In this document: positions 244 to 64,000 of the stretch, piece by piece | Position numbering within the stretch: position 1 is the first letter of the stretch | Layout of the letters: the number at the start of each line of letters is the position of its first letter | Source of the DNA: Coriobacteriaceae bacterium | Lineage (GTDB): Bacteria; Actinomycetota; Coriobacteriia; Coriobacteriales; Atopobiaceae | DNA length: 64,000 nt | Direction: 5' to 3' | Assembly: GCA_003862195.1 (NCBI GenBank) | Contig: QOUO01000009.1 | Coordinates: forward strand, 21 to 64,020 | Notes under the pieces: model-generated | Database searches by the model: none | What the model was told of the DNA's origin: nothing | The model's input: only the letters and a program-made list of their open reading frames with translations | Position numbers and translations under genes: made by a program

Positions 244-3017
244 GCCGCGGCCGAGGTCGAAGCGTCGGTCGTGGTCGCGGTCGAGCTTGTGGCCATAGTG
301 GAAGCCGAGCCCGAGCTCGCGGCTGTCGACTTCTGCGCGGCGGCCGCCACGAGCTTGGCGTAAGCCTTGCGCCCAGCCTTGGTGAGCGACGCGCCGTCGG
401 ACGAGAAGTACGCGTCGTGCCCGGCGGACGCCTTGTACCAGTCCACGACCGTCACGTTCTTGCGGCCCTTGGCCGCCGCCTTGATCGCAGCGTTGTTCGC
501 CTTGGCGTACGCGGCCTGCGAGCGACCCGTCACCACATAGACCGTCACCTTTGATCCGATGGCGTCCAGGAGCTTGGCGATGTCCCTCTCGTCAAACGGG
601 GAGCCGTCGTCCGGGTCCACCACCACGACGTCGCCCGCCGTACCGGCCTTTACGTAGGCCTTCCAGCTCTTGGCGCAGGCGTCCGCGTCGCGACCGGACG
701 CGCAGTCGATCATGGCCTGCGGCATGAGGGCGCTGAGCTCCTTGGACGCGGCGGACGTGGTCGCGTCGCCCAGCACCACGGCGCTGTACGTGGTGTTCTG
801 GCGCGTTGGCTTGACGTAGCCCGTGGTCTTGACGATGAGGTCGATCAGGTTCTGGGCGTACTGCGGGCGCAGGTGCGTGCCGTCGTCCCAGAACCAGTCG
901 TCGTGCCCGGACGAGTAGGAGTACCAGTCGATCACGCCCACGCTCTTGTGCGCGTCGGCAAAGCTCTTGAGCAGGCTGTTGTTTGCGTCGCACCAGGCCT
1001 TGGGCACACGGTCGTTCACAAACCACAGCTTGCGCTTGGTGCCCACGGCCTTGTAGATGGCGTCGAGGTCGCTCTGTGTGATGGCACCGTTTGACCCGAT
1101 GGAGAAGATTACCGTGTCGCCCACGACGCCCTTGGCGCTGTACGACTTGTACACGTCGAGCGCGGCCGAGGCCTGCCGTCCCACCTTGGCGTCGATGATC
1201 CCGTACGGGAAGGCCGCGTTGAAGGCGTCCTTTGCGCCGAGCGAGACGGAGTCGCCGATCATCACCACGTCGTACGTGCCGGACGTGAGCGGCTTGAGGA
1301 GCGTGGCCGAGCTCACGCGCTGCGCGCCGGGGGCGCCTCCCACGGCCGCCTGCGCGGGCACGAGCGCGAGGCCCAGCACCGCCACCAGGCACACGGCAGC
1401 CGGCAGCACCGCGCGCGGCGTGCGCGCGAGCGCGTGGCCCAGCGCGGCCAGGCGGCCCTGCGGGGCGGCGTCACGCTGGCGCTCGCGGGGGTTGCGGGCG
1501 GCGCCACGCGGGGCAGCGGCCCGACCGGACGTGCGAGGCGTGGCCTCGCGACGCATCGGGCGAGAAGGACGGCCCTCCCCCTGGCGACCCGCCGCGAACT
1601 CCGCGCGAGTCTCGGCTGCGGCCCTGGCCGCAGCCGCCGGTGTGACGGGCTTGGCGAGCGCGCGGAACCACTGCGCCACGCTCCCCTTGCGCAGCGGCTC
1701 CTCAACCAGGCGGTAGCTGAGCTCCGCCACCACGAGCACGAGCGCGAGCTCGAGCACGACCTGCCACGCGGGCAGCGCCGTGGTGGCGTTGCGCGGCTGC
1801 AGCAGCTCCACGATGGGATAGTGCCAGACGTAGATCGCAAACGAGCGCGAGCCCACCCACGCGAGCGGCTTGACGGAAAGCACGCGCTCCGTCACGGTGC
1901 CGTGGGGCACCAGGGCCGCGATGGCCACGGCGCTGATGGCCGAGCACAGCAGGATGCCGCCGTAGTACGAGAAGGACGAGTACCCCTCGGTCGTGACCAT
2001 CAGCCAGAGCAGGGCCACCACGGAGCCCGCGGCCGCAAGCTCCGCCACCGGGCGCCGCCACGAGGGGCCGCCCTGCACGGACGCCTGGCTCTTCTCGCCA
2101 AACGGCCACACGAACGCGAGCAGGCTGCCCAACAGCAGGCTCTGACAGCGGGCGTCCGTGCCGTAGTAGGCGCGCGACGGGTCCGCCTGCGGCACGTAGA
2201 GCTTCGCCATCACGACGGCGGAGGCGATGGTGCCCAGCGCGAGGCCAGCCACGATTGCGGGGTGCCCGCCCAGCCGCGCGGCGATTGCCTGGGCACGGGG
2301 GCTGCGGACGGTGCCGCGCGCGGGGTCGCCGCGGGTGCCGCGTGCCTGCGCGCGCGTGCGCGAGGCCCTCATGGCGAGCAGCAGCACGACGGGCCACACG
2401 AGGTAGAACTGGAACTCGATCGCGAGCGACCAGAAGTGCGTGAGGGGCGAGGGCGCGCCCGCCGCCGCGAAGTACGACTCGTGCCGCAGGATCTTGGCCC
2501 AGTTGAGGAACATGAGGAGCGCTGGCACGATGTCCGGGCGCATCTTGGTGAGCAGCTGGTGGTTGAAGGCCGTGCAGACCGCAGCCGTCACGATAACGAA
2601 GGCGATGCACGTGGGCAGCAGGCGCTTGATGCGGCGCAGCCAGTAGGAGCCGAGGCGGATGGTGCCCGAGCGCGACAGCTCGGAGAGCAGCCCCGCCGTC
2701 GCAAGGTAGCCGGAAAGCACGAAGAGCACGGTCACGCCCAGCAGCCCGCCGCCGCACCAGCTGAGGCCCATGTGATAGAAGACGACGCCCAGCGCACAGA
2801 TGGCTCGCAGGCCGTCGAGCGACGTCACGTAGCGCTTGCCCGACGCCGGGTGCTCCGGCTGGCGCTGCTGCGCCGGACGCTGCGGCGGCTGCGACCGCGC
2901 CGGACGCTGCGACTGTTGCGGACGCCTTGCCTGCTGCCTCGGCCTTGCCGAAGCGGCAAGGCGCGCCTCCCCGTTGGGTTGCGCCGGCCTGCCCTGCCTC
3001 GTGCTTCCGCCCGCCAT
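240..3017 (-). CDS. acyltransferase-3 (OafA/YrhL-like) membrane O-acyltransferase fused to two C-terminal SGNH/GDSL-like domains
   Basis: 925-aa ORF. LDGLRAICALGVVFYHM signature with multiple hydrophobic segments. C-terminal MIGDSVSLG domain is followed by a second degenerate copy (VLGDATTS). Confidence 0.8.
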   Translation of the reverse strand: MAGGSTRQGRPAQPNGEARLAASARPRQQARRPQQSQRPARSQPPQRPAQQRQPEHPASGKRYVTSLDGLRAICALGVVFYHMGLSWCGGGLLGVTVLFVLSGYLATAGLLSELSRSGTIRLGSYWLRRIKRLLPTCIAFVIVTAAVCTAFNHQLLTKMRPDIVPALLMFLNWAKILRHESYFAAAGAPSPLTHFWSLAIEFQFYLVWPVVLLLAMRASRTRAQARGTRGDPARGTVRSPRAQAIAARLGGHPAIVAGLALGTIASAVVMAKLYVPQADPSRAYYGTDARCQSLLLGSLLAFVWPFGEKSQASVQGGPSWRRPVAELAAAGSVVALLWLMVTTEGYSSFSYYGGILLCSAISAVAIAALVPHGTVTERVLSVKPLAWVGSRSFAIYVWHYPIVELLQPRNATTALPAWQVVLELALVLVVAELSYRLVEEPLRKGSVAQWFRALAKPVTPAAAARAAAETRAEFAAGRQGEGRPSRPMRREATPRTSGRAAAPRGAARNPRERQRDAAPQGRLAALGHALARTPRAVLPAAVCLVAVLGLALVPAQAAVGGAPGAQRVSSATLLKPLTSGTYDVVMIGDSVSLGAKDAFNAAFPYGIIDAKVGRQASAALDVYKSYSAKGVVGDTVIFSIGSNGAITQSDLDAIYKAVGTKRKLWFVNDRVPKAWCDANNSLLKSFADAHKSVGVIDWYSYSSGHDDWFWDDGTHLRPQYAQNLIDLIVKTTGYVKPTRQNTTYSAVVLGDATTSAASKELSALMPQAMIDCASGRDADACAKSWKAYVKAGTAGDVVVVDPDDGSPFDERDIAKLLDAIGSKVTVYVVTGRSQAAYAKANNAAIKAAAKGRKNVTVVDWYKASAGHDAYFSSDGASLTKAGRKAYAKLVAAAAQKSTAASSGSASTMATSSTATTTDASTSAAA
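1558..1570 (+). repeat. 13-mer repeat copy GGGCGAGAAGGAC
   Basis: Exact. Antisense inside the acyltransferase CDS. Confidence 0.95.
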
Positions 3018-3083
3018 GTGCCTACCTTCGCGTCACGCGCATGCAACTATCCACATACCATAAAACGAAGACATTCTAGCAGT

Positions 3084-3723
3084 CTAGTGGGCGCAATCCA
3101 GCAGGTCAGACGCGTTATGTGGAACAAGTTTCATGCAAAACGGCTCGCGCATGGCGCATGTGAGCACCGCATCGCCCAAAAGTCGCGATTGCAGCTCCCA
3201 CCCCTCGAGCACCTCCGGGTGCTTGCGGGGGTCCACGGCGAGCCCCGTGCCCATGGCCTTGAGGATGGCCTCGCGACGGGTCCAGGCGCGCGCGTAGGCG
3301 ATGCGTCCCTCGCGCGTGCTGCCGTCGCCTATGGCCGCGAGCTCGTCAGCGTCGTAGTACTTACGGGCCAGGAGTTCCTCCACGTGGCGGTAGCGGCCGG
3401 GAACCTCCTCCACGTCCACGCCGACGGCGGGTCCTCCCACGGAGCCCATGGCCAGCACCACGAGGCCGGCGTCGTTGGAGAGGTTGAACTCCGGCGCACC
3501 CGAAACGCTCGGCTTGCCGTACTCGCCCAGCGTGAGGTCCTCGTCCGCGCGCACGCCCAGCAGGTACCGCGCCAGCAGGCCCGTGCCCAGCGCCTCGAGC
3601 CGGCGCGCCTCGGGACCCATGTTCGCGCGCTCGCGATAGCGCGGTGCGATGACCTTTCTGCAGGCATCCTCGAGCCCCGCCAGCGTGGCGGTCTCGAGCA
3701 CGTGCACCACGACCTTCTCCACC
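3084..3723 (-). CDS. 4'-phosphopantetheinyl transferase (Sfp-type)
   Basis: GKPSVSGAPEFNLSNDAG, GVDVEEV and WTRREAILKAMG blocks. Start set at GTG 3723, preceded by a GAGGGGG SD. The longer ORF-track start overlaps the upstream gene. Confidence 0.7.
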
Positions 3724-4252: not shown

Positions 4253-4265
4253 GCTCTTCTCGCCC
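4253..4265 (-). repeat. 13-mer repeat copy GGGCGAGAAGAGC
   Basis: Exact. Abuts ATG 4252 of the NlpC/P60 gene, in sense orientation. Confidence 0.95.
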
Positions 4266-8280: not shown

Positions 8281-10638
8281 ATGCAGGGAACAGAGAAGTC
8301 GGCGGTCTTCTGTCCGCTGATACTTGGGTGTCTTGTCGCGCTCGTGCTCGTCACGCTCGGCTATGTCGTGCTCGACGGCGCGCTCCTCGCGCGTGCGTCC
8401 GCATCGGGCGAGAAGAACGGCTCCCCCGTGCGGCGGGCCCTTCGGCACGTGAGGCCCAGCGTGATCCTCTGGTCCCTCCCCTACCTGGGCATCCTCACCT
8501 TCCTCTATATATGGTGCGCCCGCGGGCTCTACTCCGGCGCCACGGGCTCGCTCGACGTGCCGCTCCGCGCCACGCTCGCCTGCGCCGCCGTCACGCTGCC
8601 GCACCTGCGCATCGTCTCCCTCGTGCGGAGCCGCCTGGGCGAGCGCGCCGCCTTCTGGGTGGGGCTCGTCGCGAACGTCGCCCTCATGGCGGTCGCCGTC
8701 AACTTCGCGCGCATCGCCCTCGAGTGCCCCTGGAACGCCGACTGGCAGGACATCGCCCTGCAGTTCGTGGCCATCGAGTACGTGATCGTCCTTCTCGGCT
8801 TCCTCACGCTCTTCTTCCTCTTCCAGTGTCGCGGCGGTGCCGTGGCCGTGGGCGTCCTGCTCATGCTCGTGCTGGGCATCGCGCAGTACTTCGTCTTCCT
8901 CTTCAAGGACGCCAACATCACGCCCGCCGACCTGCAGGCCATCGGCACCGCTGCCGAGGTCAGCGGCGGATACGTCTTCACGATCACGGCCGCCGTGGCC
9001 AAGGCGCTCGGCTACGCGGCGGCGGGCGTCGCCTGCGCCGCCTACCTCGCGCCGCTCGAGCTCCCCGCACGCGAGGCCGCTACCGAGCCCGTCCAGGCAC
9101 CGCGCCACGCCGCTCCCACCGCCATGCCAGACGACAAGGGCACGGGCAAGGGCGCCGGCTCTGCCATCGGGCGCGCCCTCGAGCGCCCAGCCACCAGGCG
9201 CACGGCGCTCGGCCTCCTCAGCATGGGCGGCCTCGCGGCCTTCGTGACGATCCCCGGCTACGGGGCGGACTTTGGGGTCAGCCTCAACCACTGGAACTCG
9301 ATGTACAGCACTTCTCGCCAGGGCTTCTTCCCCTGCTTCGTGAAGGAGTTCCAGGCCCGCCTCATCCCCGTGCCCGCCAACTACAACGAGCAGGACGCCA
9401 AGTCGGTCGAGAAGGACCTGGTGTCCCAGTACGCAAAGCGCCTCGGAACGGGCGCATCCTCTGACTCGGGCACCGCGCGCAAGGCGGCCGTGGCCCAGTT
9501 CAAGAAGAAGCGGCCGACCGTGGTCGTGATCATGAACGAGTCGTTCTCGGACCTCTCCGTGTACAAGAGCATCAGCGCCGCCGGCTACGCGGGCCCCACG
9601 TTCGTGAAGACGGGCCTCACCAACGCGCTGCTGCGCGGCGACTCCTACACCTCCATCTTTGGCGGCGGCACCTGCAACTCGGAGTTCGAGGCGCTGTGCG
9701 GCGTCAACCTGCACTACCTGGGCGCCAACAAGTACCCCTACACGCAGTGGGACTTCACCAAGGTGCCGTGCATGCCGCGCCAGTTTGCGGCCCTCGGCTA
9801 CAAGACGTACGCCATCCATCCCAACGAGGCCACCAACTGGGACCGCAAGCGCGTGTACGAGCAGATGGGCTTCGACAGGTTCTACTCCATCACGGACTTC
9901 GTGGGCGCCCAGACCTACCACAACGGCTACGTGAGCGACCGTGCCACGTACCAGAAGATCCTCACCCTGCTCAAGAGGGGCTCCACGCCGGAGTTCATCC
10001 ACACCGTCACGATGCAGAACCACGGGCCCTTCACCACGGGCACCATCCCCACGGCGGACGAGCTCGACTACGAGCCCGAGGGCGCCAGCGCCTCCGATAA
10101 CTTCATGCTGAACGAGTACCTGTCCTGCGCCACGGAGTCCGACCGCGCCATCGAGTGGTTCCTGGGCGAGGTCGGCAAGCTCGACCGTCCCGTGGCGGTG
10201 CTCTTCTTTGGCGACCACCAGCCCAAGCCCGCGAGCCCCTACGCGACCCTGGGATACGAGGACGAGTCCTCCATCCAGATCGCGGAGCGCATGTACCACA
10301 CAACGTACTTCATGTGGGCCAACTACGACGTGGCCGGCAGCGACCAGACGAGCGAGACCGAGGACCTGCCCGTGAGCGCCCTGGGAGACGAGCTCATGTA
10401 CCGCATCGGCGCGCCCATCAGCCGGCGCCAGAAGGCCAACCTCGCCTCCCGCAAGAGCCTGCCCATACTGAGCCTCATCGGCTACCAGGACGCCAAGGGC
10501 AACTGGCACGAGTTCACGGACGCGGACGACGAGACCATCGCCTCGCCCAGCCAGACCAAGAACGCCAGCGCGGCCAGGCACATGGACAGCATGATGGCCT
10601 ACGTCAACTACCTCAGGTTCGGCAGCATCGTCAACTAG
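8281..10638 (+). CDS. LTA synthase / sulfatase-family membrane protein (LtaS/MdoB-like)
   Basis: N-terminal multi-TM region plus an extracellular alkaline-phosphatase-superfamily domain (VVVIMNESFSDL, FFGDHQP). ATG 8281 chosen. Confidence 0.75.
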   Translation: MQGTEKSAVFCPLILGCLVALVLVTLGYVVLDGALLARASASGEKNGSPVRRALRHVRPSVILWSLPYLGILTFLYIWCARGLYSGATGSLDVPLRATLACAAVTLPHLRIVSLVRSRLGERAAFWVGLVANVALMAVAVNFARIALECPWNADWQDIALQFVAIEYVIVLLGFLTLFFLFQCRGGAVAVGVLLMLVLGIAQYFVFLFKDANITPADLQAIGTAAEVSGGYVFTITAAVAKALGYAAAGVACAAYLAPLELPAREAATEPVQAPRHAAPTAMPDDKGTGKGAGSAIGRALERPATRRTALGLLSMGGLAAFVTIPGYGADFGVSLNHWNSMYSTSRQGFFPCFVKEFQARLIPVPANYNEQDAKSVEKDLVSQYAKRLGTGASSDSGTARKAAVAQFKKKRPTVVVIMNESFSDLSVYKSISAAGYAGPTFVKTGLTNALLRGDSYTSIFGGGTCNSEFEALCGVNLHYLGANKYPYTQWDFTKVPCMPRQFAALGYKTYAIHPNEATNWDRKRVYEQMGFDRFYSITDFVGAQTYHNGYVSDRATYQKILTLLKRGSTPEFIHTVTMQNHGPFTTGTIPTADELDYEPEGASASDNFMLNEYLSCATESDRAIEWFLGEVGKLDRPVAVLFFGDHQPKPASPYATLGYEDESSIQIAERMYHTTYFMWANYDVAGSDQTSETEDLPVSALGDELMYRIGAPISRRQKANLASRKSLPILSLIGYQDAKGNWHEFTDADDETIASPSQTKNASAARHMDSMMAYVNYLRFGSIVN
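8406..8418 (+). repeat. 13-mer repeat copy GGGCGAGAAGAAC
   Basis: Exact. Sense in the LtaS-like CDS, read as G-E-K-N. Confidence 0.95.
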
Positions 10639-11375: not shown

Positions 11376-11388
11376 GTTCTTCTCGCCC
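11376..11388 (-). repeat. 13-mer repeat copy GGGCGAGAAGAAC
   Basis: Exact. Sense, in the 5' leader of the Crp-family gene. Confidence 0.95.
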
Positions 11389-44310: not shown

Positions 44311-45546
44311 CTACGAGCCCAGGACGTCGTGCACGTCGCACACCACGATGCGGTCCACCTTGGCGACCGGCTCCCAGCGGTAGCCCGCGGCCGCGGACTC
44401 GAAGCACAGGTACAGCTTGCCGCCATAGAGGTCCATCTCCTCAAGCATGGGCGGCAGCACGAACGTGGCCCAGGACTGGTCGTTGCGCAGGTCGTGGCTC
44501 CACGCGCCGCCGCCCCACCACATGACGCGCAGGCGGCTGTCGCGGCTGCCCCACGACTGCGAGAGCAGGCAGAGGTCGCCCACGATGCCCATGCCCTGGA
44601 CCTGGCCGTTGATGAGCGCGCCGTCCACGGGGTCGAGGATGTCGCCGCTGGTCTTGGCGACCCGCTTGGCGAGGTGCTTGAGCACGCGCGACTTGCGCAC
44701 GTTGATCATGCCGAGCTCGTCCACGTCCCAGCCCTGCTCCGCCTCGAGTGCGCCGTCGTTGCGGATGCGCTGGATCTCGCCCAGGACCTCGTCCTTGTCG
44801 GCCTCGCGCAGGCCGCCGTCGGACTCGATGTCGAAGGCCTGTATGGTCGTACGCGACTTGCGCGCGCCGGTGAAGTCGCCCACGTACAGCCTGCCGGAAT
44901 AGACCGTCAGGAACGACGCGTGGTTGAGCGTGCGAACGGGGTAGGTGCGCTCGATGCGGCACGGGGCCTTGGCCCGGGAGTCGTCGTACTTCTCCCATGC
45001 GCTGAGCTCGATCGAACTCACGGTGGCGCAGCCGTTCTTGCCCTCCTGGTAGCCGCATATCCACAGGCGGTGGTGGCGCGCGTCGTACGCGAGGCCGCCG
45101 ACGTGCGGCTTGCCGCTGAGCACGATCACGCCGTCGAGCCGGCGGGTCTTGCGGCTAATGCGATAGATCACGGAGTTGTGCGCGTGGGCGCGGCAGTACG
45201 CGGACACGAGCAGGTACTTTCCCGCGACGCAGACGCCCTGCGGCGTCATGGTCGTGCAGCTGCACAGGTTGTTGTCCGCGTCCAGGGTGCGCGTGATCTT
45301 GAGGCCGGGTATCACGTAGCTTTCGCGCGCGATCTTGGCGGCGCTGGCGGTGCCGCTCGCGCCCACGCCGTAGTTGCGGAGCACGGTGCGGAAGTCCTCC
45401 TCGGAGAAGACGGCGTCGGCGTTGGTACCGTCCGCGCTCGAGGTGGGGCCCGTCGGCAGCGGATGCGCCATGCCGTACGCAAAGAAGCAGCACGCCGCCA
45501 CAAAAAGGGCGCACAGCACCTTTGGCCACGTTCTTCTCGCCCGCAT
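44311..45546 (-). CDS. hypothetical exported protein
   Basis: Arg-rich N-terminus plus a hydrophobic signal/anchor (WPKVLCALFVAACCFFAYG). No family recognised. Confidence 0.55.
   Translation of the reverse strand: MRARRTWPKVLCALFVAACCFFAYGMAHPLPTGPTSSADGTNADAVFSEEDFRTVLRNYGVGASGTASAAKIARESYVIPGLKITRTLDADNNLCSCTTMTPQGVCVAGKYLLVSAYCRAHAHNSVIYRISRKTRRLDGVIVLSGKPHVGGLAYDARHHRLWICGYQEGKNGCATVSSIELSAWEKYDDSRAKAPCRIERTYPVRTLNHASFLTVYSGRLYVGDFTGARKSRTTIQAFDIESDGGLREADKDEVLGEIQRIRNDGALEAEQGWDVDELGMINVRKSRVLKHLAKRVAKTSGDILDPVDGALINGQVQGMGIVGDLCLLSQSWGSRDSRLRVMWWGGGAWSHDLRNDQSWATFVLPPMLEEMDLYGGKLYLCFESAAAGYRWEPVAKVDRIVVCDVHDVLGS
45530..45542 (-). repeat. 13-mer repeat copy GGGCGAGAAGAAC
   Basis: Exact. 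Sense, covering codons 2-6 of the exported-protein gene in a different frame (R-A-R-R-T). Confidence 0.95.
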
Positions 45547-51114: not shown

Positions 51115-51543
51115 CTACGCGCCGAACTTCTTGAGCAGGTCCATGATCTCGTCCACGACCTCCGTGTCGCCCTGCTGGATGCGCTCGACCACGCAGGTGT
51201 GCAGGTGGTCCTTCATGATGATGCGGCTCACGGCCTTGATGGCGCTTTCCGCCGCGGCGAGCTGCGTGAGCACGTCGCCGCAGTAGCGGCCGTCCTCCAC
51301 CATGCTCTTGACGCCGTTGAGCTGGCCGATCGCGCGGTTGAGGCGGCGGGTCACGTCGCGCTGCAGCTCTTCGGAGCGCGGCGTGTGCTTGTAGGCCACG
51401 CCGTCGGCGTCGGCGCCGGTGCCGCCCGAGCACGCCGGGCAGCCCGGCGTCACGTCCTTCTCGCCCTGCGTTGTGGCTGCCTTTGCCTCGGCCTCTGCCA
51501 CGACCTTGGGCTCCTGCGTCAGCTCCGCCATGATGACCTCCAA
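51115..51543 (-). CDS. csoR: CsoR family metal-sensing transcriptional repressor
   Basis: [35 protein letters not shown]...HLHTC core, with an N-terminal extension of about 55 aa. Confidence 0.85.
51454..51466 (-). repeat. 13-mer repeat copy GGGCGAGAAGGAC
   Basis: Exact. Sense in the csoR N-terminal extension, read as G-E-K-D. Confidence 0.95.
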
Positions 51544-51788: not shown

Positions 51789-53885
51789 ATGGCTTTTCTC
51801 CCCGTCAACAGGCAGGACATGGCAGAGCGCGGCTGGGACCAGTGCGACTTCGTGTTTGTGTGCGGAGACGCGTACGTGGATCACTCGTCGTTTGGCATGG
51901 CCATCATCACGCGCACGCTCGAGGCGCACGGCTACAAGGTGGGCGTGATCTGCCAGCCGGATTGGCGCGACGAGAAGAGCGTGCAGGTCCTTGGCGAGCC
52001 GCGCCTGGCGTTTCTGGTATCGAGCGGCAACATGGACTCCATGGTCAACCACTACACGGTGGCCAAGCGCCGCCGCAGCGAGGACTTCTACTCCCCCGGC
52101 GGCAAGATGGGCCTGCGCCCGGACCACGCCACCGTGGTGTACTCCAACCTCATCCGCAGGGTCTACCGCCACGTGCCCATCGTGCTGGGCGGGATCGAGG
52201 CGTCGCTGCGCCGCCTTGCCCACTACGACTACTGGTCAAACTCGCTCAAGCGCTCGATCCTCCTGGACAGCGGCGCCGACCTGCTGATATACGGCATGGG
52301 CGAGCGCTCCGTTGTCGAGGTGGCGGACGCGCTGGACTCCGGCCTCCCCGTGGACCAGGTCACGTGGATCCACGGCACCGTGTACCGCACGCGCACGACG
52401 GAGGACGTGGACCGGCCGCTCGCGCTCCCCACTTGGGAGCAGATGCGCGCGGACAAGCTCGAGTACGCCCGCAGCTTTGGCATCCAAAGCAGGAACCTCG
52501 ACCCGTTTAGCGCGCGCACGCTGGTGGAGGAATACCCCCACGGCGTATACGTGGTGCAGAACCCGCCGACCATGCCGCTCACCACGGAGCAGATGGACGA
52601 GACGTACGAGCTCCCGTACGAGCGCACCTACCACCCCATGTACGAGGCCGCCGGCGGCGTCCCCGCCATCAAGGAGGTCAAGTTCTCCATCGCCAACAAC
52701 CGCGGCTGCCTGGGGCAGTGCAGCTTCTGCGCGCTCAACTTCCACGAGGGCCGCATCATCCAGAGCCGCAGCCACGCCTCCATCCTGCGCGAGGCGCGCC
52801 TCATGACGCAGGACCCGGACTTCAAGGGCTACATAAGCGACCTTTCCGGCCCCACGGCAGACTTCCGCATCCCCGCTTGCGCCAAGCAGCTCAAGAGCGG
52901 CGCGTGCCCCAACCGCCGCTGCCTGGCGCCCGAGCCCTGCCCCAACCTGCGCGTCACGCACGAGGACCTGGTCCAGCTCCTGCGCGAGCTCCGCGCCATC
53001 CCCGGCATCAAGAAGGTCTTCATCCGCAGCGGCATCCGCTTTGACTACGCCATGCTCGACCACGACCACACCTTCATAAAGGAGCTGGCGGAGTACCACA
53101 CATCCGGCCAGCTGCGCCTGGCGCCCGAGCACATATCCGACCAGGTGCTCGAGATCATGGGCAAGCCGCACAACCACATGTACGAGGACTTCTGCAAGGA
53201 GTTCGAGAAGTACAGCCGCGCCGCCGGCAAGGAGCAGTACGTGCTGCCCTACCTCATGAGCAGCCACCCCGGCTCCACCATGCGCGAGGCCGTCAAGCTC
53301 GCGGAGTTCTGCCGCGACCTGGGCTACAACCCCGAGCAGGTGAGCGACTTCTATCCCACGCCGTCCACGGTGTCTACCTGCATCTTCTATACCGGCGTGG
53401 ACCCGCGCACCATGAAGCACGTCTACTGCCCCACCAACCCGCACGAGAAGGCCATGCAGCGCGCGCTCATCCAGTACCGCAACCCCAAGAACTACGACCT
53501 GGTGGTCGAGGCGCTGCACATCGCGCACCGCGAGGACCTCATCGGCTACGGCCCCAAGTGCCTGGTCAGGCCCGACGGCCCGTGGCACTCCAAGGAGGAT
53601 TCCAAGGGCGAGAAGAACAACGGCCACGGCGGCAGCCGCAGGCGCTCCGGCGGCAAGGGCCGTGGTGGCAACGCCGGCAACGGCGGCCGCAACCACGGCA
53701 AGTCCCAGGGACAGGGCCAGCCTCGAGGCAAGGGTCAGGGCGGCAAGGGGCCGCGCGCCAACGCAGCGGGCGGCCGCGGCGCCGGCCAGCACGCGGATGC
53801 CCAGCACAGCACGTACGCCTCACGCGGACGCCACCCCGGCAAGAGGGCGCACCGCGGCGGTAACCAGCACGGCGGCCAGCGCTAG
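51789..53885 (+). CDS. ygiQ: YgiQ family (UPF0313) radical SAM protein
   Basis: N-terminus MAFLPVNRQDMAERGWDQCDFVFVCGDAYVDH, a CxxxCxxC-type block (CLGQCSFCALNFH), and a Gly/Arg-rich basic tail. Confidence 0.85.
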   Translation: MAFLPVNRQDMAERGWDQCDFVFVCGDAYVDHSSFGMAIITRTLEAHGYKVGVICQPDWRDEKSVQVLGEPRLAFLVSSGNMDSMVNHYTVAKRRRSEDFYSPGGKMGLRPDHATVVYSNLIRRVYRHVPIVLGGIEASLRRLAHYDYWSNSLKRSILLDSGADLLIYGMGERSVVEVADALDSGLPVDQVTWIHGTVYRTRTTEDVDRPLALPTWEQMRADKLEYARSFGIQSRNLDPFSARTLVEEYPHGVYVVQNPPTMPLTTEQMDETYELPYERTYHPMYEAAGGVPAIKEVKFSIANNRGCLGQCSFCALNFHEGRIIQSRSHASILREARLMTQDPDFKGYISDLSGPTADFRIPACAKQLKSGACPNRRCLAPEPCPNLRVTHEDLVQLLRELRAIPGIKKVFIRSGIRFDYAMLDHDHTFIKELAEYHTSGQLRLAPEHISDQVLEIMGKPHNHMYEDFCKEFEKYSRAAGKEQYVLPYLMSSHPGSTMREAVKLAEFCRDLGYNPEQVSDFYPTPSTVSTCIFYTGVDPRTMKHVYCPTNPHEKAMQRALIQYRNPKNYDLVVEALHIAHREDLIGYGPKCLVRPDGPWHSKEDSKGEKNNGHGGSRRRSGGKGRGGNAGNGGRNHGKSQGQGQPRGKGQGGKGPRANAAGGRGAGQHADAQHSTYASRGRHPGKRAHRGGNQHGGQR
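53606..53618 (+). repeat. 13-mer repeat copy GGGCGAGAAGAAC
   Basis: Exact. Sense in the ygiQ tail, read as G-E-K-N. Confidence 0.95.
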
Positions 53886-53930: not shown

Positions 53931-53943
53931 GCTCTTCTCGCCC
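53931..53943 (-). repeat. 13-mer repeat copy GGGCGAGAAGAGC
   Basis: Exact. Convergent intergenic region, next to a hairpin. Confidence 0.95.
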
Positions 53944-56803: not shown

Positions 56804-57739
56804 CTACTTGTTGGCGTGACCCTCGATCACCATGTTCTCGAAGCGGTGCGACATGAACTCGTTTGAGAAGTTCGCGTCCACCCACTGCTCAAACTGGTTG
56901 CGGGGAGGGATGCCCTGGTCGCGCTGGGCGCGGCGCGTAAAGCACGCCAGCGTCATGAACACGTCGAGCGCAAGGTAGGCGGCAAGTACGAACACGAAGA
57001 TCACCTGGCGGCGCGTGGTGGGCTCGCCGATGAGGTCGAGCAGCCACGGCGTGATGACGGAGGACCAGATGAGGCCGATCAGCCCCCAGAAGAACAGGAA
57101 CGGCCACGACACCCACTTGGTGATGTGCCCGGGCACGGTGCTGTAGTCCCACGAGACGGCGCCCATGAACGTCTCCATGCCCCAGCCGGTTATCTGCTCA
57201 AGAAGCCCGCCCACCACCATGGACACCAGAAAGACCTCCCACCACGGGGCGTGGCGGCGCATCAGCTCGCGCGACACGAGCGTGAGCAGCACGGCGCCCA
57301 CGCCGTACAGGGGCGAGAAGGGCCCCCATACCAGGCCGTAGCGCCCCTGCGTGAGCCCCTCCGTCACGAACATCCAGACCTCTTCCAGCACGAGGCCGCC
57401 CACGGCCCCCACGATGAAGAGGATCACGACCTGGTACCACGTGATGCGCATGTGCTCCACGCGGTCGTTGCGAACGATCTTCTCGCGCTGGAATATTGCG
57501 GAAAGCTGCGCGCGCGTGAGTCGCAGCGGCTTGCCGATGAGCTTGCGGTACCCCTTGAGGCGGTAATAGAAGTCCAGCTCCTTGGCGGCGTCGCGCACGT
57601 CCTGCGGCAGCTCGCGGTCCTGCGCGGCCCATTCGATCCGCTTGCCGCGTCCCAGCCACGACACAAACCACTTGATGACAAACAGGACGCCCCTGACCAC
57701 GAGGGCAAGCAGAAGGAGGCTGACAAGGGACCAGAACAT
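56804..57739 (-). CDS. integral membrane protein (putative ABC-transporter type IV / CmpB-like family)
   Basis: Multi-TM protein. GLVWGPFSPLYGVGA block resembles PF06541-type proteins (by eye). Confidence 0.45.
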   Translation of the reverse strand: MFWSLVSLLLLALVVRGVLFVIKWFVSWLGRGKRIEWAAQDRELPQDVRDAAKELDFYYRLKGYRKLIGKPLRLTRAQLSAIFQREKIVRNDRVEHMRITWYQVVILFIVGAVGGLVLEEVWMFVTEGLTQGRYGLVWGPFSPLYGVGAVLLTLVSRELMRRHAPWWEVFLVSMVVGGLLEQITGWGMETFMGAVSWDYSTVPGHITKWVSWPFLFFWGLIGLIWSSVITPWLLDLIGEPTTRRQVIFVFVLAAYLALDVFMTLACFTRRAQRDQGIPPRNQFEQWVDANFSNEFMSHRFENMVIEGHANK

Positions 57740-57790: not shown

Positions 57791-58771
57791 CTAGCGCGTC
57801 TCGACGGTGCGGCGCAGGCCCACGAGGGCGAGAAGGACGCCAACCAGGGCAAGCACGCCCAGCATGAGCCAGACGTGTGCGAGGAAGGGCGCCGTCGCGG
57901 TGTACTCGGGAAGGTTGTGGTTGACCCCCAGCACGCCGGGGTCCAGGGGGAAGTTGGTGATGTAGTCCTGCAGGCGGGCGATCAGCGTGTCGAAGAACGG
58001 GATCTTGACGCCGCCCACGGGCGACTTGGACATCTCGCGCGCCACGGAATCGGTCACCTGGCTCGTGACCTGCTGCGACACCTGCCCCATGATCTTCTTG
58101 ACCGAGGTCTCGGCCTTCCACGGCAGCGTGTCGATGTCGAAGATCGTGCCAAGGGCGGAAAGCCCCCAGCGCACGATGGTGGTCTCGCGCAGCGGGCGGA
58201 TCGCGTCGGGCAGGCCAAAGAGCGTCTCGGACATGATGAGCTCGTAGATGAGGATGAACGGCGCCACGGTGAGCGCCTGCTGCGACGTGTGCACGATGGC
58301 CGAGACTCCCAGCCCCAGCATCTGCGCGGCAAACGTGATGAGGAAGAGCGTGAGGAAGTACTCCACCATGGTCGGCGCAAGGATCGCCGCCACGTCCGTT
58401 GGCCACTCGATGATGTAGGTGCTCATGGCATAGAGGATCGCCGTTTGGAGAAGTGCGTGGACGGCCTGCCACGCCACGTTCGCGAGCACGAACGAGTACG
58501 GGTTGAGGCCCGAGAACTTGTCGCGCTCGAGCACGTCGCGGGCGTCGCAGATGCAGAGGATCGAGTCGAACAGGCCCATCCAGAGGCAGCAGCACACCAC
58601 GATGAAGAAGCCGATCTTGGCGTTCTCGTAAAAGTCGAACATGCGGTAGCGGATGACCCACGACGCGAGCGAGCTGATGATGAGCGCGGACGCCGCCATC
58701 AGGAGCTCGGACTTCTTGTTGAACGACTCGCGGGCAAGCATGGCGACCTGCTCGACGAAGCTCAGACTCAT
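57791..58771 (-). CDS. ABC-2-type transporter permease
   Basis: Six hydrophobic segments. ATG 58771 overlaps the TGA of the upstream ATPase gene by 1 nt. Confidence 0.6.
   Translation of the reverse strand: MSLSFVEQVAMLARESFNKKSELLMAASALIISSLASWVIRYRMFDFYENAKIGFFIVVCCCLWMGLFDSILCICDARDVLERDKFSGLNPYSFVLANVAWQAVHALLQTAILYAMSTYIIEWPTDVAAILAPTMVEYFLTLFLITFAAQMLGLGVSAIVHTSQQALTVAPFILIYELIMSETLFGLPDAIRPLRETTIVRWGLSALGTIFDIDTLPWKAETSVKKIMGQVSQQVTSQVTDSVAREMSKSPVGGVKIPFFDTLIARLQDYITNFPLDPGVLGVNHNLPEYTATAPFLAHVWLMLGVLALVGVLLALVGLRRTVETR
57826..57838 (+). repeat. 13-mer repeat copy GGGCGAGAAGGAC
   Basis: Exact. Antisense in the ABC-2 permease CDS (read V-L-L-A). Confidence 0.95.
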
Positions 58772-60954
58772 CAGCACATGCCTCCAAGGGCGTCGGGATG
58801 GTCGCGGCGCCATTCCTCGAAGCGACGTATGAACGGGACGGGGTCCTTGTCCATGAGGGTGTATATCTCGCGCGTGGAGCGCGTGTCGAAGTACTCGAAC
58901 AGCTTGTCCGGCGTGCCGTAGAAGCAGACCTTGCCGTGCGCGAGGAAGCAGATCTTGTCGAACAGCTGGATGTTCTCGTAGTCGTGGTTGATCACGAGGC
59001 AGCTCATGCGCTCGTCGTGCACGAGGGCGTGCAGGACGGCCACGAGGTTGCCGGAGTCGCCAGGGTCGAGGCCCGAGGTGGGCTCGTCCAGCAGCAGGCC
59101 GTCGGGGTACGACAGGAGCTCGCACGCGACCGAGACGCGACGCTTTTCTCCCCCGGAGCACTTGCGGATGAGCGTCTTGCTGACGCCCGTGAGCTCGAGC
59201 TCGCGCATGACCCAGTCGATCCGCTCCTTGGCCTTGGGGCCCGGGAGGTGCTTGACGGCGCGCGCGTAGAACTCGAGCTGCTGGCGCACGCGGAGGTTCT
59301 GGTGCACGAGGTTCTGCTGCGGCACGAAGCCGAGCTCGCCCTCGAAGATGACCCGGCCCTTGGTGGGGCGCAGCGTCCCCAGGATGATGCTGCCGAGCGT
59401 GGACTTGCCACCGCCCGAGCTGCCCACGATGGCCACGAGCTCGCCACCCTTGATGGTGAGGTTGATGTCGTCCAGCACCTTCTTGCGGCCAAAGCTGCGG
59501 CTCACGTGCGAGAGCACGATGTTGCCGCCGCGCGGGCCGGCCGACGCGTCCGCGTGCGCGCCCTCCTGGAGCATGCGGTCGCACTCGTCTATCTCGTCCT
59601 GTGCGTCCTCGCGGCCCAGGCGCAGCGCCTGGGTAAAGTACTTGCGGGCGGTGTCGTAGCTCTTCTCCACGAACATGCCCGTGCCGTAGCAGAGGGCGAG
59701 CTGGAAGGCCGCGTCCGCGTTGCCGTTCTCTATCGCGAGGTCGAACCACGCCACGCCGCGCGCGACGTCCTGGTCAAGGTATTTGCCGATGAGGTAGTAG
59801 TAGCCCAGGTCCCACATGGCCGTGGTGTTGCCCGCCTGGGCGGCGCGCTCCCACCACTCGCGCATGAGGTCGTAGTTCTTGGGAACGCCGTTGCCCGCCT
59901 GGTAGCGGTTGCCAAGCGAGCGCATGGCCGTGCGGTCGCCGGCCTCGGCACGGGCCTTGAGCTGGGCGATCTCGTCCTCCGCAAGGTCCGTGTCGTCGTA
60001 GTCGCGCCCGGGGGCGGCCATTGCGTCCGAGAAGTGCCTGCCGCGCTGGCCCTGAGCGAGGGCGGGCTTCACGGCTGGCTTGGTCGCGGGAGCGGGGGCC
60101 GTTGCTGCAGCGGGCTCGGGCTCGGCCTTGGGCTCTGGCTCTTGCTCCGTCTTGGGTTCCAGCTTCGACTCCGCCGCCGGCTCCGGCTTTGCCTTGGGCT
60201 TGGGCTCAGGCTCATGCTCCGTCTCAGGCTTGGCCTGCTTTGCGGCCTTTCCCTTGGCCGACTTGGCGTCGGACCCCTTTGGCCTCATCGCGACCACGAC
60301 GGCCGCGTCCTTCTCGCCCTCGCCGGCGTTCGGGGACGCCTCCACTCTCACCACGAGGTTGGGGTACCTCTCCTCCGCCGGCTCCTCCGCGGGGACTTCC
60401 GATGCAACCGGGGAGTCCTTCTCGCCCGTCGCCTCATGGTCTTCGGGTTCGGCTTCGTCCTCGGTCGAGGCGTCATCCTCGGCCTTGTCGCCACCCTCGG
60501 CCGGAGCATCGCCCTCCGCCTCCGCATCGCCCTCGCTCAGCGCATCGTCCTTGGCCGAAACCTCGCCCTCGTCCGGCGCCTCGTCCTTGTCCGCGGGCTC
60601 CAGCTTGGTCGTGGCGTCCTTCTCGCCCAGCGCCACCTGCATCAGGCGCTCGGGAAGCACCACCTTGTCGGGATCGACGGTCTGCTCCGCCGTCTCGGGC
60701 AGGATGTACTCCAGCTCCTCGTCGGGCTCTGGTGCGTCCTTTGCCAGCGTCACGTCGGCATAGTCGATGTAGCCGGTCTGGCGGCGGTTCGCGCGGCCCC
60801 CGTCGGGAAGTCGCTTCTGGCCGTCCGCACCGGCAGACTTGGACTTGCCGCGGCCAAGGCCGAAGAGCCACCCGCGCCGCCTGGGCGCCGGTCCCTGCGG
60901 GTCGTTCTTGCCCCAAAAGACCTCTGAGTCAGTCTCTGGACGTTTGCTGCCCAT
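58771..60954 (-). CDS. ABC transporter ATP-binding protein with an N-terminal disordered region and Sel1/TPR-like repeats
   Basis: About 330 aa acidic/Pro/Lys low complexity. Sel1-like repeats (GDRTAMRSLGNRYQAGNGVPKNYDLMREWWERAAQAGN...). Walker A GSSGGGKST, CSGGEKRRV, LLLDEPTSGLD. Confidence 0.8.
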   Translation of the reverse strand: MGSKRPETDSEVFWGKNDPQGPAPRRRGWLFGLGRGKSKSAGADGQKRLPDGGRANRRQTGYIDYADVTLAKDAPEPDEELEYILPETAEQTVDPDKVVLPERLMQVALGEKDATTKLEPADKDEAPDEGEVSAKDDALSEGDAEAEGDAPAEGGDKAEDDASTEDEAEPEDHEATGEKDSPVASEVPAEEPAEERYPNLVVRVEASPNAGEGEKDAAVVVAMRPKGSDAKSAKGKAAKQAKPETEHEPEPKPKAKPEPAAESKLEPKTEQEPEPKAEPEPAAATAPAPATKPAVKPALAQGQRGRHFSDAMAAPGRDYDDTDLAEDEIAQLKARAEAGDRTAMRSLGNRYQAGNGVPKNYDLMREWWERAAQAGNTTAMWDLGYYYLIGKYLDQDVARGVAWFDLAIENGNADAAFQLALCYGTGMFVEKSYDTARKYFTQALRLGREDAQDEIDECDRMLQEGAHADASAGPRGGNIVLSHVSRSFGRKKVLDDINLTIKGGELVAIVGSSGGGKSTLGSIILGTLRPTKGRVIFEGELGFVPQQNLVHQNLRVRQQLEFYARAVKHLPGPKAKERIDWVMRELELTGVSKTLIRKCSGGEKRRVSVACELLSYPDGLLLDEPTSGLDPGDSGNLVAVLHALVHDERMSCLVINHDYENIQLFDKICFLAHGKVCFYGTPDKLFEYFDTRSTREIYTLMDKDPVPFIRRFEEWRRDHPDALGGMC
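60307..60319 (-). repeat. 13-mer repeat copy GGGCGAGAAGGAC
   Basis: Exact. Sense in the Sel1-ABC N-terminal region, read as G-E-K-D. Confidence 0.95.
60415..60427 (-). repeat. 13-mer repeat copy GGGCGAGAAGGAC
   Basis: Exact. Sense in the Sel1-ABC N-terminal region, read as G-E-K-D. Confidence 0.95.
60616..60628 (-). repeat. 13-mer repeat copy GGGCGAGAAGGAC
   Basis: Exact. Sense in the Sel1-ABC N-terminal region, read as G-E-K-D. Confidence 0.95.
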
Positions 60955-63369: not shown

Positions 63370-63378
63370 GCACGGCCG

Positions 63379-64000
63379 CTACAGGTCGCGCTTGGTCAGG
63401 ATCTCCTGTGGGATGAGCCCGCATCCCACCACCACGGCGCGCGCGTAGTCCGCCTCCTCCGGCGAGAGCCCCTCGCACACCAGCGACATGTCCGGCACGT
63501 CCAGCTTGGACTGGCCTGTTGACTCGTTGTCCTCCGGGTCCGGGAAGCGCTCCATCGCGCGGTCCACCATGAGCCTATACGCGGGCGAGAAGGACGAGAA
63601 CTTGTACTTCTCGCCCAGCTCCGCCTTGAGCTTCATCATGAGGTCCACGCCCGCGCGGTCGATGTCGCCCCAGTACAGCACCTCGACCGTGTCCGCGCCC
63701 AGCGTGTCGAGCAGGAGCGAGAGCCGGTTGTGCTCCAGCACGGGCGTGCCGCCGCCCAGCACCACGGCATGCACGCGCTCGCCCAGGATCTGCGTGCGGC
63801 CGTCCTCGTACATGAGGTCGTGAACGTCCAGGTAGGGGTCGAGGTTCTCCGTCACCAGCACGCGCATGTGCTTGCGGCGGCGCGGCGCGTGGTACACCAG
63901 GTCGCTCTTGGGCATGGGACGGCGGCGCACGATGTCCTCCATGCCCATGGCGCGCAGTAGGCGGAACCCGTCGCTCCCGTACTCGAAGAACTTCTCGTCC
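63379..64000 (-). CDS. Toprim-like (DUF2220 / JetD C-terminal-like) domain protein, 5' end probably outside window
   Basis: VLVTENLDPYL ... VVLGGGTPV ... LYWGDIDRAGVDLMMKLK pattern. The frame stays open upstream of ATG 63948 to the window edge. Confidence 0.5.
   Translation of the reverse strand, partial: DEKFFEYGSDGFRLLRAMGMEDIVRRRPMPKSDLVYHAPRRRKHMRVLVTENLDPYLDVHDLMYEDGRTQILGERVHAVVLGGGTPVLEHNRLSLLLDTLGADTVEVLYWGDIDRAGVDLMMKLKAELGEKYKFSSFSPAYRLMVDRAMERFPDPEDNESTGQSKLDVPDMSLVCEGLSPEEADYARAVVVGCGLIPQEILTKRDL
63583..63595 (+). repeat. 13-mer repeat copy GGGCGAGAAGGAC
   Basis: Exact. Antisense in the Toprim-like CDS (read S-F-S-P). Confidence 0.95.

Follow-up and report, generated by a model that had tools for sequence, protein, structure and literature searches.

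The window, that is, the whole 64-kb stretch analysed here, belongs to the chromosome of a Parafannyhessea (Atopobiaceae, Coriobacteriia, Actinomycetota; a gut/fermenter actinobacterium), which confirms the supposition that the host is a high-GC Gram-positive bacterium. Scattered through this DNA, at a spacing of about one per 2.4 kb, is the asymmetric 13-base word GGGCGAGAAG(R)(R)C, of which all exact copies are given in Table 1. The pattern GGGCGAGAAGRVC has 27 exact matches, 11 on the plus and 16 on the minus strand. A preliminary description of this DNA had listed 26 (10 plus, 16 minus); exact search recovered each of these coordinates and strands and added a GGC variant at 57311 on the plus strand that had been missed. 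The 10-nt core CGAGAAGRAC matches at 38 positions, 16 of them outside 13-mers rather than the roughly 20 estimated earlier, and all 12 core-only examples that had been cited are present, one of them at 33380 instead of 33381.

Table 1. Exact copies of the 13-base word in the 64-kb window.
Variant	Position	Strand	Context	Relatives
GGGCGAGAAGGAC	1558..1570	+	antisense within acyltransferase gene (240-3017, minus strand)	
AGC	4253..4265	-	fills 18-nt spacer of two co-directional genes; abuts ATG at 4252	
AAC	8406..8418	+	sense, frame G-E-K-N; sulfatase-family gene, N-terminal part	
AAC	11376..11388	-	sense; 36 nt upstream of called Crp-family regulator gene start	window-lineage specific
AAC	21540..21552	-	sense, G-E-K-N; PPi-phosphofructokinase (PFK) gene	gained via R>G and G>N relative to outgroups
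AGC	22887..22899	+	antisense, FMN-reductase gene (S-S-R-P)	P. umbonata-type orthologue has 2 mismatches
GAC	23478..23490	-	sense, G-E-K-D; DeoR regulator gene	
AAC	24962..24974	+	intergenic, spacer of divergent genes; 77 nt before esterase gene start	
AAC	28290..28302	-	intergenic, both flanking genes on plus strand (antisense); direct pair with 28325	
GAC	28325..28337	-	intergenic; 35 nt from 28290 copy	
AAC	31183..31195	-	intergenic; upstream of LysR-family gene, opposite strand	
GAC	32258..32270	+	sense; LysR/OYE gene boundary, 5' leader or codons 3-6	
GAC	33066..33078	-	antisense, OYE flavin oxidoreductase gene (V-L-L-A)	no mismatch in P. umbonata-type loci
GAC	37019..37031	+	sense, G-E-K-D; small ORF	orthologue has AAC variant
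AGC	42278..42290	-	sense; aldehyde-dehydrogenase-family gene, 8 codons before stop	conserved in L126 and L127
AAC	45530..45542	-	5' end of gene 44311-45546; M-R-A-R-R-T-W if start is ATG at 45546	GAC variant in L126
GAC	47580..47592	+	sense, class III FBPase gene (L-S-A-G-E-K-D-V-L)	conserved in L126 and L127
GAC	49644..49656	-	sense, Cu-ATPase gene	conserved in L126 and L127
GAC	51454..51466	-	sense, CsoR-family repressor gene, 5' region	conserved in L127, flanks ~60% identical
AAC	53606..53618	+	sense, radical-SAM protein gene, low-complexity C-terminal tail	window-lineage specific
AGC	53931..53943	-	62-nt spacer of convergent genes, beside GC hairpin	window-lineage specific
GGC	57311..57323	+	antisense, membrane-protein gene	one mismatch in L127
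GAC	57826..57838	+	antisense, ABC-2 permease gene near 3' end (V-L-L-A)	window-lineage specific
GAC	60307..60319	-	sense, ABC/Sel1 protein gene, N-terminal half	
GAC	60415..60427	-	sense, same ABC/Sel1 gene as 60307	
GAC	60616..60628	-	sense, same ABC/Sel1 gene as 60307 and 60415	
GAC	63583..63595	+	antisense, JetD_C-domain gene; inverted pair with 10-nt GGGCGAGAAG at 63606-63615 (-)	

The abundance of the word far exceeds chance. One hundred dinucleotide-preserving shuffles gave a mean of 0.03 copies and never more than one, an enrichment of about 900-fold that agrees with the earlier estimate of far less than one chance copy, and the enrichment also holds against a codon-aware null, since permuting codons within every called ORF left about 0.2 copies where 25 are observed in ORF space (~100-fold). 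The word family is the window's top k-mer at every k from 8 to 12. It holds about 23 bits of information, and none of the 33 copies of GGGCGAGAAG deviates from C at position 13. In the flanks, which are almost random (at most 0.4 bit per position), the weak preferences noted previously for CGC upstream and G(T/C)(G/C) downstream are confirmed; comparison of the flanks among the window copies revealed no common element beyond 13 nt, as had been proposed, and no AT-rich segments were seen around the copies. There was no Rfam match. The sample comprised ~70 kb from one genome and ~150 kb from relatives, mostly syntenic, and within it the word extends past the window, the 4.5 kb of DNA to its left containing two exact copies.

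We considered whether the word might be a by-product of coding, either as the preferred codons of a common peptide or as a protein motif. Fifteen sense coding copies lie in one frame, xxG GGC GAG AAG RRC, which encodes G-E-K-D/N/S, and GGC, GAG, AAG and GAC are preferred codons of this genome (76-97% usage). No other sense frame is so built, the two remaining ones needing the rare codons CGA/GAA/GGA or AGA/AGG. However, the peptide GEK[DNS] is itself over-represented about 30-fold (17 occurrences in the window against 0.54 expected), and in 15 of the 17 the coding DNA is the exact word together with the G at the wobble position just before it, a share that codon usage would put at about 25%. 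This upstream wobble position holds G in 16 of the 17 (39% expected). Moreover, some 16 copies (8 antisense and ~8 intergenic) lie outside sense coding, the codon-permuted null falls far short of the observed count, and relatives of equal codon usage have no 13-mer in 333 kb. A coding artefact is thus refuted, and the constraint on the word acts at the DNA level.

Copies are biased toward gene ends and toward one well-tolerated reading frame. Mapping on the gene calls reproduced the earlier count of 17 sense copies among 25 assignable ones and the mixture of coding and intergenic, sense and antisense sites. The claim of at least three reading frames did not hold for the 15 sense copies in their single frame; only a possible signal-peptide copy (45530) and the antisense copies provide additional frames. 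The sense bias had suggested an RNA-level signal, such as a site on mRNA for a protein, a small RNA or the ribosome, and AAGGA does occur inside the word, with five to six sense copies within ~40 nt of start codons. Spacing to the start codon nevertheless ranges from 0 to 77 nt, and therefore the word cannot be a Shine-Dalgarno site. Sense bias arises because only the GGC-GAG-AAG-GAC frame uses preferred codons, so no RNA-level role is needed to explain it. Eight copies are antisense to local genes, including the conserved one at 33066 and the intergenic pair at 28290 and 28325, and this, with the lack of an Rfam match, makes action through RNA highly improbable.

The word is also G- and purine-rich and abundant in chromosomal DNA, as might be expected of a polar chromosome-processing signal, whether Chi-like (RecBCD/AddAB) or KOPS/SRS-like (FtsK/SpoIIIE). 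GAGAAGGA within it matches the SRS of B. subtilis, GAGAAGGG, at 7 of 8 positions, with one mismatch. Such a signal should be polar, but the orientations are interleaved at 16:11, a split that results from gene orientation multiplied by sense bias and is fully accounted for by it; if skew were 85%, 16 or fewer of 27 would occur with P ~0.001. In L337, all five core copies lie on the negative-GC-skew strand, opposite to the window majority. Neither the strand counts and GC skew of the window nor the comparison with L337 revealed replication polarity. Chi and KOPS sites are 5-8 nt long and enriched only a few-fold, unlike a 13-nt word enriched ~900-fold, and we regard a polar signal as very unlikely.

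Orthologous sites in relatives show how copies persist and appear. At 16 such sites, 5 copies are identical and one more is changed only at position 11, which is degenerate, although flank identity is 75% (binomial P ~2e-5 for the conservation of copies); the conserved copies include an antisense one (33066). Copies specific to the window correspond in the orthologues to near-misses with 2-8 mismatches. At the PFK site, A-R-E-K-G-V of outgroups becomes G-E-K-G in a 93% relative and G-E-K-N in the window, and at the FBPase site E-E-x-D becomes G-E-K-D, the outgroups having L-S-P-E-E-x-D-V-L. These alignments indicate that new copies arise by point substitution, some of which alter conserved residues. 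To our knowledge, a word that is kept between species and rewrites proteins is so far known only from the DNA-uptake sequences of Neisseria and Haemophilus.

Alternatively, the word might be a functionless product of sequence-biased mutation, repair or gene conversion, as has been proposed for the cyanobacterial HIP1 octamer. The origin of copies from near-misses through point substitutions would fit, as would the over-representation of one-mismatch variants (13 beyond the allowed variants) and the different densities of sister species. The bias would, however, have to be continuous and strong for copies to outlast flank decay to 75%, and no enzyme known to us has the asymmetric 13-bp specificity that it would require. 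Nor have we found such a site among described methyltransferases and repair systems. We consider a purely mutational origin rather improbable.

The word is lineage-restricted, and its density is graded between related species. The window species has 0.38-0.47 core copies per kb; P. umbonata-type loci have 0.19-0.32, an Olsenella sp. SW781-like locus has 0.28 and a second lineage labelled P. umbonata has 0.12-0.13, with at most 0.08 elsewhere. No copy was found in Olsenella profusa, and the 333 kb lacking the 13-mer are other high-GC Atopobiaceae-like loci. Within the window, copies are missing from a lower-GC sugar/PTS segment (11389-21539) and from a 5-kb segment (37175-42258) with no counterpart in the P. 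umbonata-type locus.

This distribution bears on the possibility that the word is a high-copy site for a lineage-specific intracellular DNA-binding protein, which would bind the duplex in either orientation and have no part in uptake. The protein might organise the nucleoid, or it might belong to a defence or repair system for which the word is a 'self' mark. A binding site could be an asymmetric word of ~23 bits, conserved whichever strand is coding, without polarity and restricted to a lineage, and the empty segments would suit a mark of long-resident DNA. The depletion of accessory segments is, however, a post hoc observation, and two copies of the P. umbonata-type locus lie in a segment absent from the window. 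Intracellular binding alone also explains a steady gain by point mutation less readily than transmission bias does, and no protein family known to us requires about a thousand non-palindromic sites of 13 bp and can force amino-acid changes in conserved enzymes. Such a binding site seems unlikely, if still worth considering.

We favour, at a rough probability of 0.4, the reading that the word is an analogue of DNA-uptake sequences, possibly spread in the Parafannyhessea lineage by biased uptake plus recombination. A surface component of a DNA-uptake apparatus would prefer double-stranded DNA carrying GGGCGAGAAG-R-R-C over other DNA, and conspecific word-bearing fragments would then be imported and recombined more often, the uptake bias, receptor and competence all being putative. 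Point mutations that create or improve a copy would be over-transmitted, a molecular drive by which copies may build up wherever tolerated, between genes, at gene ends, in loops and in the Gly-Glu-Lys-Asp/Asn/Ser frame, and copies already present would withstand decay. Receptors known for DUES are type IV minor pilins of diderms, with ComP shown in Neisseriaceae and that of Pasteurellaceae only predicted to date, and any counterpart in a monoderm is hypothetical. No competence genes occur among the genes of the window, and we found no literature on competence in Coriobacteriia or Atopobiaceae, nor any on such a word in high-GC Gram-positives, consistent with the earlier statement that none had been described there.

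The resemblance to uptake sequences proposed in the preliminary description is partly supported. At the sequence level the word behaves as such a model predicts in its enrichment, in an information content like that of a 12-mer DUS, in its occurrence in both orientations with no polarity beyond that due to gene orientation, in its coding and non-coding sites with their bias to one frame and to gene ends, in its lineage restriction and varying density, in the persistence of copies beside diverging flanks, in their origin by point substitution and in its continuation past the window. About half of known DUES copies lie in terminators (bioRxiv 10.1101/2025.10.24.684340), but such a strong association was not seen for the window copies, where terminator-like sites were not above chance, without a systematic link, and only 1-3 copies lie beside hairpins.

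Among other known systems, REP/BIME/MITE-type repeats are likewise interspersed in high copy number but are longer, structured and intergenic, whereas the word is mostly genic, Rfam-negative and without shared sequence beyond 13 nt. Cyanobacterial HIP1 (GCGATCGC) is similarly hyper-abundant both inside and outside coding DNA, phylum- or lineage-specific and of debated role, but differs from the asymmetric 13-nt word as a palindromic octamer, recognised by methyltransferases (bioRxiv 10.64898/2026.06.24.733823). Chi, KOPS and SRS share with it G-richness and asymmetry, and SRS nearly a core, but are shorter, modestly enriched and strongly co-oriented with replication.

The Pasteurellaceae USS has a 9-nt core plus flanks. 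The present word lacks AT-rich flanks, differs in taxon and sequence and has a putative function; like USS, it lies mostly within genes, in frames encoding tolerated peptides. DUS and USS, too, favour one orientation within reading frames and are biased to gene termini (PMC2346458), and the frames that they occupy tend to be those of low coding cost (bioRxiv 10.1101/2025.10.24.684340). USS copies are likewise created by point mutation and reshape proteins (PMC2817400).

The DUS of Neisseriaceae is 10-12 nt long, occurs in dialects and has the minor pilin ComP as its receptor. The Parafannyhessea word is unrelated in sequence, its host is a monoderm actinobacterium, from whose group we know of no ComP-type pilin, and its role in uptake is putative; its copies are mostly coding, with few in terminators as against about half of DUES, and its density of one per 2.4 kb is about half that in Neisseria or Haemophilus. 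Both, nevertheless, are short asymmetric words of ~23 bits, hundreds-fold over-represented in both orientations and at coding and non-coding sites, lineage-specific and variable in density and sequence among related species. Both also form occasional intergenic inverted pairs as hairpins, here between convergent genes in L126, a 96% relative (2941-2971), and in both of them copies are conserved while the flanks diverge.

A search of the window with the pattern GGGCGAGAAGRVC returned 27 exact matches of the word (the asymmetric 13-mer GGGCGAGAAG-R-R-C), 11 on the plus strand and 16 on the minus strand, whereas dinucleotide-preserving shuffles of the same 64 kb gave 0.03 on average and never more than one. 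All 26 copies listed in the preliminary description were recovered at their positions and strands, and one unlisted copy, in which positions 11-13 read GGC, lies at 57311 on the plus strand. At every k from 8 to 12, the commonest k-mer of the window belongs to the word family. The further copies of the shorter core reported earlier are also present, as CGAGAAGRAC has 38 matches, 16 of which, including all twelve previous examples, fall outside the 13-mers. The description of a short, asymmetric and over-represented word was thus borne out, with an enrichment like that of DUS and USS, the DNA uptake sequences of Neisseriaceae and Pasteurellaceae.

GGGCGAGAAG occurs 33 times in the window. When aligned, all 33 have C at position 13 and 29 have a purine at position 11; at position 12, 23 have A and 7 have G. 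No flanking position exceeds 0.4 bit, and the preferences for CGC upstream and for G(T/C)(G/C) downstream are weak, as had been described. Because the flanks are near random and position 13 is invariant, the unit is an asymmetric 13-mer that holds about 23 bits and, in line with the earlier claim, is not part of a longer shared element. Gaps between copies are near random (coefficient of variation 0.88) with a few clusters, such as the pair at 28290/28325 and three copies within one gene at 60.3-60.6 kb. The word is not limited to the window, since the 4.5 kb added on the left by L336, a metagenome locus of the same species, hold two more exact copies. For the host genome our analysis covers about 70 kb, and for word-bearing relatives about 150 kb of mostly syntenic sequence.

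About 70% of the copies lie within genes, and metagenome gene calls place about eight between them. Fifteen sense copies share the single frame xxG GGC GAG AAG RRC, which encodes G-E-K-D/N/S. Called ORFs contain GEK[DNS] 17 times, whereas amino-acid frequencies predict 0.54 occurrences; 15 of the 17 are spelled by the exact 13-mer with its preceding wobble G, a spelling predicted by codon usage for only about 25%. Under the codon-aware null proposed in the preliminary description, in which codons were permuted within every ORF, about 0.2 copies were obtained versus 25 observed in ORF space. What is constrained is the DNA rather than the protein or the codons, and the possibility that the word is a codon artefact can be regarded as refuted. 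Eight copies are antisense to local genes, two of them forming the intergenic pair 28290/28325 and six lying within genes, where they read as V-L-L-A, S/P-F-S-P or S/P-S-R-P.

The excess of sense copies (17 of 25), which had been taken to hint at an RNA-level signal, is real, but no RNA role is needed to account for it. Only the frame GGC-GAG-AAG-RRC uses the preferred codons of the genome (GGC 76%, GAG 94%, AAG 97% and GAC 93%), which explains the bias; the two other sense frames require the rare codons CGA/GAA/GGA or AGA/AGG. We regard a signal acting at the RNA level as very improbable. Many copies are near the ends of genes, at N- or C-termini: in an 18-nt spacer that precedes the ATG at 4252, at 42278 (eight codons ahead of a stop), in a low-complexity tail at 53606 and, just outside the window, at codons 3-6 of a FecCD gene. 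As with DUS and USS, coding copies occupy tolerated frames and gene termini, and they reshape the proteins concerned. A role in translation start or as a Shine-Dalgarno sequence was considered for copies abutting ATG or GTG and rejected, as gene calls put the starts 0-77 nt away from them; the G(T/C)G near copies, also considered as a start signal, is the weak 3' flank of the word. A LuxR-type HTH peptide was likewise rejected as the origin of 'AGEKDVL', since FBPase, Cu-ATPase, DeoR and the other proteins concerned are unrelated to one another.

The window sequence is also found, as an exact match, on a 206-kb metagenome contig (JGI 3300022146, Ga0214872_100022), and its proteins are identical to MAG proteins labelled Coriobacteriaceae bacterium, Olsenella sp. 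and Parafannyhessea sp. The FBPase relative at 80-81% is Parafannyhessea (formerly Olsenella) umbonata, and that at 76% is Olsenella profusa. On the basis of these MAG proteins and FBPase relatives we place the host, recognized earlier as a high-GC Gram-positive bacterium, in the Atopobiaceae, class Coriobacteriia. Pfam annotation indicates an ordinary chromosomal gene set, with ABC transporters, a PTS/sugar cluster, PPi-PFK, a class III FBPase, a Cu-ATPase with CsoR, a radical-SAM enzyme, a two-component system and several regulators; it identified no competence genes within the 64-kb window. The JetD_C ORF at the window end holds an inverted pair of the word (63583 on the plus strand and 63606-63615 on the minus strand), and a Wadjet anti-plasmid system may lie directly beyond. 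An esterase-domain protein (26471-28222, plus strand; 5637-7142 in the P. umbonata-type locus L332) contains a long Ala/Lys/Pro repeat (KPAA/AAKPAAKK), which is the source of the commonest tetrapeptides of the window and differs in its array between species. The tandem CGCGAAGAAG in L332, a candidate second word, was rejected as it is an AAKPAAKK protein repeat.

For comparison with relatives, 80 metagenome loci around FBPase homologues were fetched, and loci around PFK and enolase homologues were added. Enolase proved too conserved to lead to non-syntenic parts of the same genome: with the enolase of L334, one of these loci, as the query, the best 120 matches all came from another species. 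P0441 led to the Olsenella sp. SW781-like locus. The density of GCGAGAAGRAC separates the loci cleanly (see table), and other high-GC Atopobiaceae-like loci, 333 kb in all, lack the 13-mer, as do the loci examined of O. profusa, a 74% Olsenella sp. and a low-GC 67% lineage. The comparison of relatives with other GC-rich genomes called for earlier thus shows enrichment in P. umbonata-type and SW781-like loci and absence elsewhere, and the word, like DUS and USS, is lineage-specific and common to related species. The copies in the SW781-like locus are mostly the shorter GCGAGAAGRAC, which could represent a dialect (n = 5). Matches of the 14-mer GGGCGAGAAGGACG across genome contigs were, among those listed, random single ones in all phyla and are uninformative on enrichment; those in viral contigs were single or double chance matches only and are uninformative on phages of the host. 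The SW781-like locus also has, at 11888-14776, a C5 DNA methyltransferase adjoining a MutH-domain gene, both within a patch of low GC content (0.57); they probably form a module of the restriction-modification or very-short-patch-repair-like type that was acquired.

Features of the window and density of the core in groups of metagenome loci
Feature or group	Position in window or loci	Strand	GCGAGAAGRAC copies per kb	Remarks
Copper-resistance operon	48477-51615	-		CsoR-family repressor and Cu-ATPase with two HMA domains; one conserved word copy per gene
JetD_C (Wadjet) domain ORF	63379-63999	-		Runs off window end
Window species	L121-126, L336		0.38-0.47	Two short fragments 0.15-0.23
P. umbonata-type loci	L127-129, L142, L332		0.19-0.32	Two short fragments 0-0.10
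Olsenella sp. SW781-like locus	L337		0.28	
Second lineage labelled P. umbonata	L329-331		0.12-0.13	
All other loci			<=0.08, mostly 0	

The P. umbonata-type loci are syntenic with the window from 10.4 to 58.6 kb at 71-91% nucleotide identity. At 16 alignable orthologous sites, five copies are identical, a sixth departs from the window copy at the degenerate position 11 alone and a seventh by one mismatch. Given the 75% identity of the flanks of shared copies, the probability of 13/13 identity is 0.022, and the binomial P for at least five identical copies among 16 is 2e-5. The conserved copies include one at 33066 that is antisense to the gene in which it lies. Within aligned DNA, every exact copy of the relative has a window copy at the same site, except for one GGC-variant copy in L332, and the window species has about nine copies more. 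At sites with a copy in the window only, the relative carries near-misses with 2-8 mismatches (e.g. GGGCGTGACGAGC and AAGGGAGAAGGGC). In protein alignments, the FBPase site reads L-S-P-E-E-x-D-V-L in outgroups versus L-S-A/P-G-E-K-D-V-L in the two word-bearing species, and the PFK site reads A-R-E-K/A-G-V in outgroups, G-E-K-G in a 93% relative and G-E-K-N in the window. These near-misses and alignments indicate that copies arise stepwise by point substitution, at times through non-conservative changes in conserved enzymes, and are retained once formed. Even if its function is not uptake, the word acts as a strong force: it overrides protein conservation and is kept between species, and sequence-specific machinery must therefore read it. 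We consider it unlikely that it is an intracellular high-copy protein-binding site or self mark, and less probable still that it is the by-product of a sequence-biased, HIP1-like repair or conversion process.

Because the plus strand has a negative GC skew across the window and most genes lie on the minus strand, the latter is probably the leading strand. It carries 16 of the 27 copies (59%), and 57% is predicted from gene orientation combined with the sense bias, so that co-orientation with replication does not depart from the gene-orientation expectation in this local test. Plus and minus copies are interleaved along the window, and in L337, an independent locus from another species, all five core copies are on the strand with negative GC skew, opposite to the window majority. 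Nothing in the window or L337 suggests a KOPS- or Chi-type orientation rule. The core resembles the SRS of B. subtilis (GAGAAGGG), but neither the local polarity nor the length of the word fits a polar signal of this type: Chi, KOPS and SRS have recognition lengths of 5-8 nt, whereas 13 positions are constrained here, up to the invariant last one (33/33). We judge such a signal to be quite improbable.

The longest word-free stretch (11389-21539) is a sugar/PTS cluster with a lower GC content, 0.61-0.64 (glycosyl hydrolase 1, PTS IIA/B/C, mannose-6-P isomerase and ROK). At 84-86% identity to a P. umbonata-type locus it is the best-conserved part of the comparison, and it is possibly recently exchanged DNA. 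The second longest (37032-42277) coincides with a 5-kb segment (37175-42258; DUF134/NifB-like, pirin, RpiR-family and amidinotransferase-like genes) that has no word copies and lacks a counterpart in L127, L129 and L142, which are syntenic P. umbonata-type loci. A word-free accessory segment fits, post hoc, a word that marks long-resident DNA. Counter to this, the relative has two copies in a segment absent from the window. In L332, an Ada/AlkA-like fusion gene (Methyltransf_1N, HhH-GPD and DNA_binding_1) at 17833-19128, also absent from the window, has two exact copies within or adjoining it.

Terminator-like sites in the window are at chance level and have no systematic association with the word, and only the copies at 28290 and 53931 adjoin hairpins. 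The only convincing intrinsic terminators of the window, at 12441-12478 (plus strand) and 36361-36391 (minus strand), have perfect 16- and 13-bp stems followed by T-runs; both are without the word. In L126, a 96% relative, an insert of about 85 bp (2911-2995) between convergent genes carries the hairpin-forming inverted pair GGGCGAGAAGGacggccgCCCTTCTCGCCC. At the window counterpart (44308-44310) the two genes are 1 nt apart, and the difference reflects either the gain of a bidirectional terminator or a small deletion.

The phenomenon is both real and strong. It combines extreme enrichment, asymmetry, an information content of about 23 bits, a lack of polarity at the local scale and copies wherever they are tolerated with graded lineage restriction, persistence between species and birth by point mutations that alter conserved residues. 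The uptake sequences of Neisseriaceae and Pasteurellaceae have this signature, which in them is explained by biased uptake and recombination, and for this reason we prefer an uptake-type mechanism. By analogy with these families, from which uptake bias, a receptor and competence are extrapolated, we tentatively propose that the word is a DNA-uptake-sequence analogue spread by biased uptake and recombination (probability about 0.4). A fuller version, proposed with slightly greater reserve, would make it the first DNA uptake sequence outside Proteobacteria. A Parafannyhessea clade of gut and fermenter Actinomycetota would then be naturally transformable, a putative sequence-specific receptor on its monoderm uptake apparatus would recognise GGGCGAGAAG-R-R-C, and about a thousand copies would have accumulated in the genome through biased uptake, altering conserved enzymes.

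To our knowledge, sequence-specific DNA uptake is documented in two proteobacterial families only, with the receptor known in one and only predicted in the other. We know of few genetic tools for the Coriobacteriia, a gut group. P. umbonata is cultivable, and the uptake hypothesis is therefore directly testable. If true, this independent monoderm actinobacterial case would mean that uptake specificity evolved repeatedly, would point to a new receptor type and would imply that Coriobacteriia undergo natural transformation; these bacteria may become transformable with DNA to which the word has been added. The earlier statement that such signals are undescribed in high-GC Gram-positive bacteria agrees with our full-text literature searches, which found no paper with the word in a relevant context, no description of an uptake sequence outside the two proteobacterial families (Gram-positives, Actinobacteria) and no report of competence in Coriobacteriia. 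A 2025 survey still treats DUES, the collective term for uptake sequences, as confined to these two families.

Among known systems, REP and MITE elements have a longer, structured (palindromic) unit and are essentially intergenic, whereas the word has near-random flanks and lies mostly in genes. It matches no Rfam covariance model and no tRNA or tmRNA (0 Rfam families and 0 tRNAs in the 64-kb window). It does not belong to the DUS/USS families by descent, as neither taxon nor sequence agrees, and it lacks the localisation at terminators, often in the form of inverted pairs, that is common there. It does share with DUS and USS the one favoured in-frame orientation and the preference for gene termini that have been published for them (PMC2346458).
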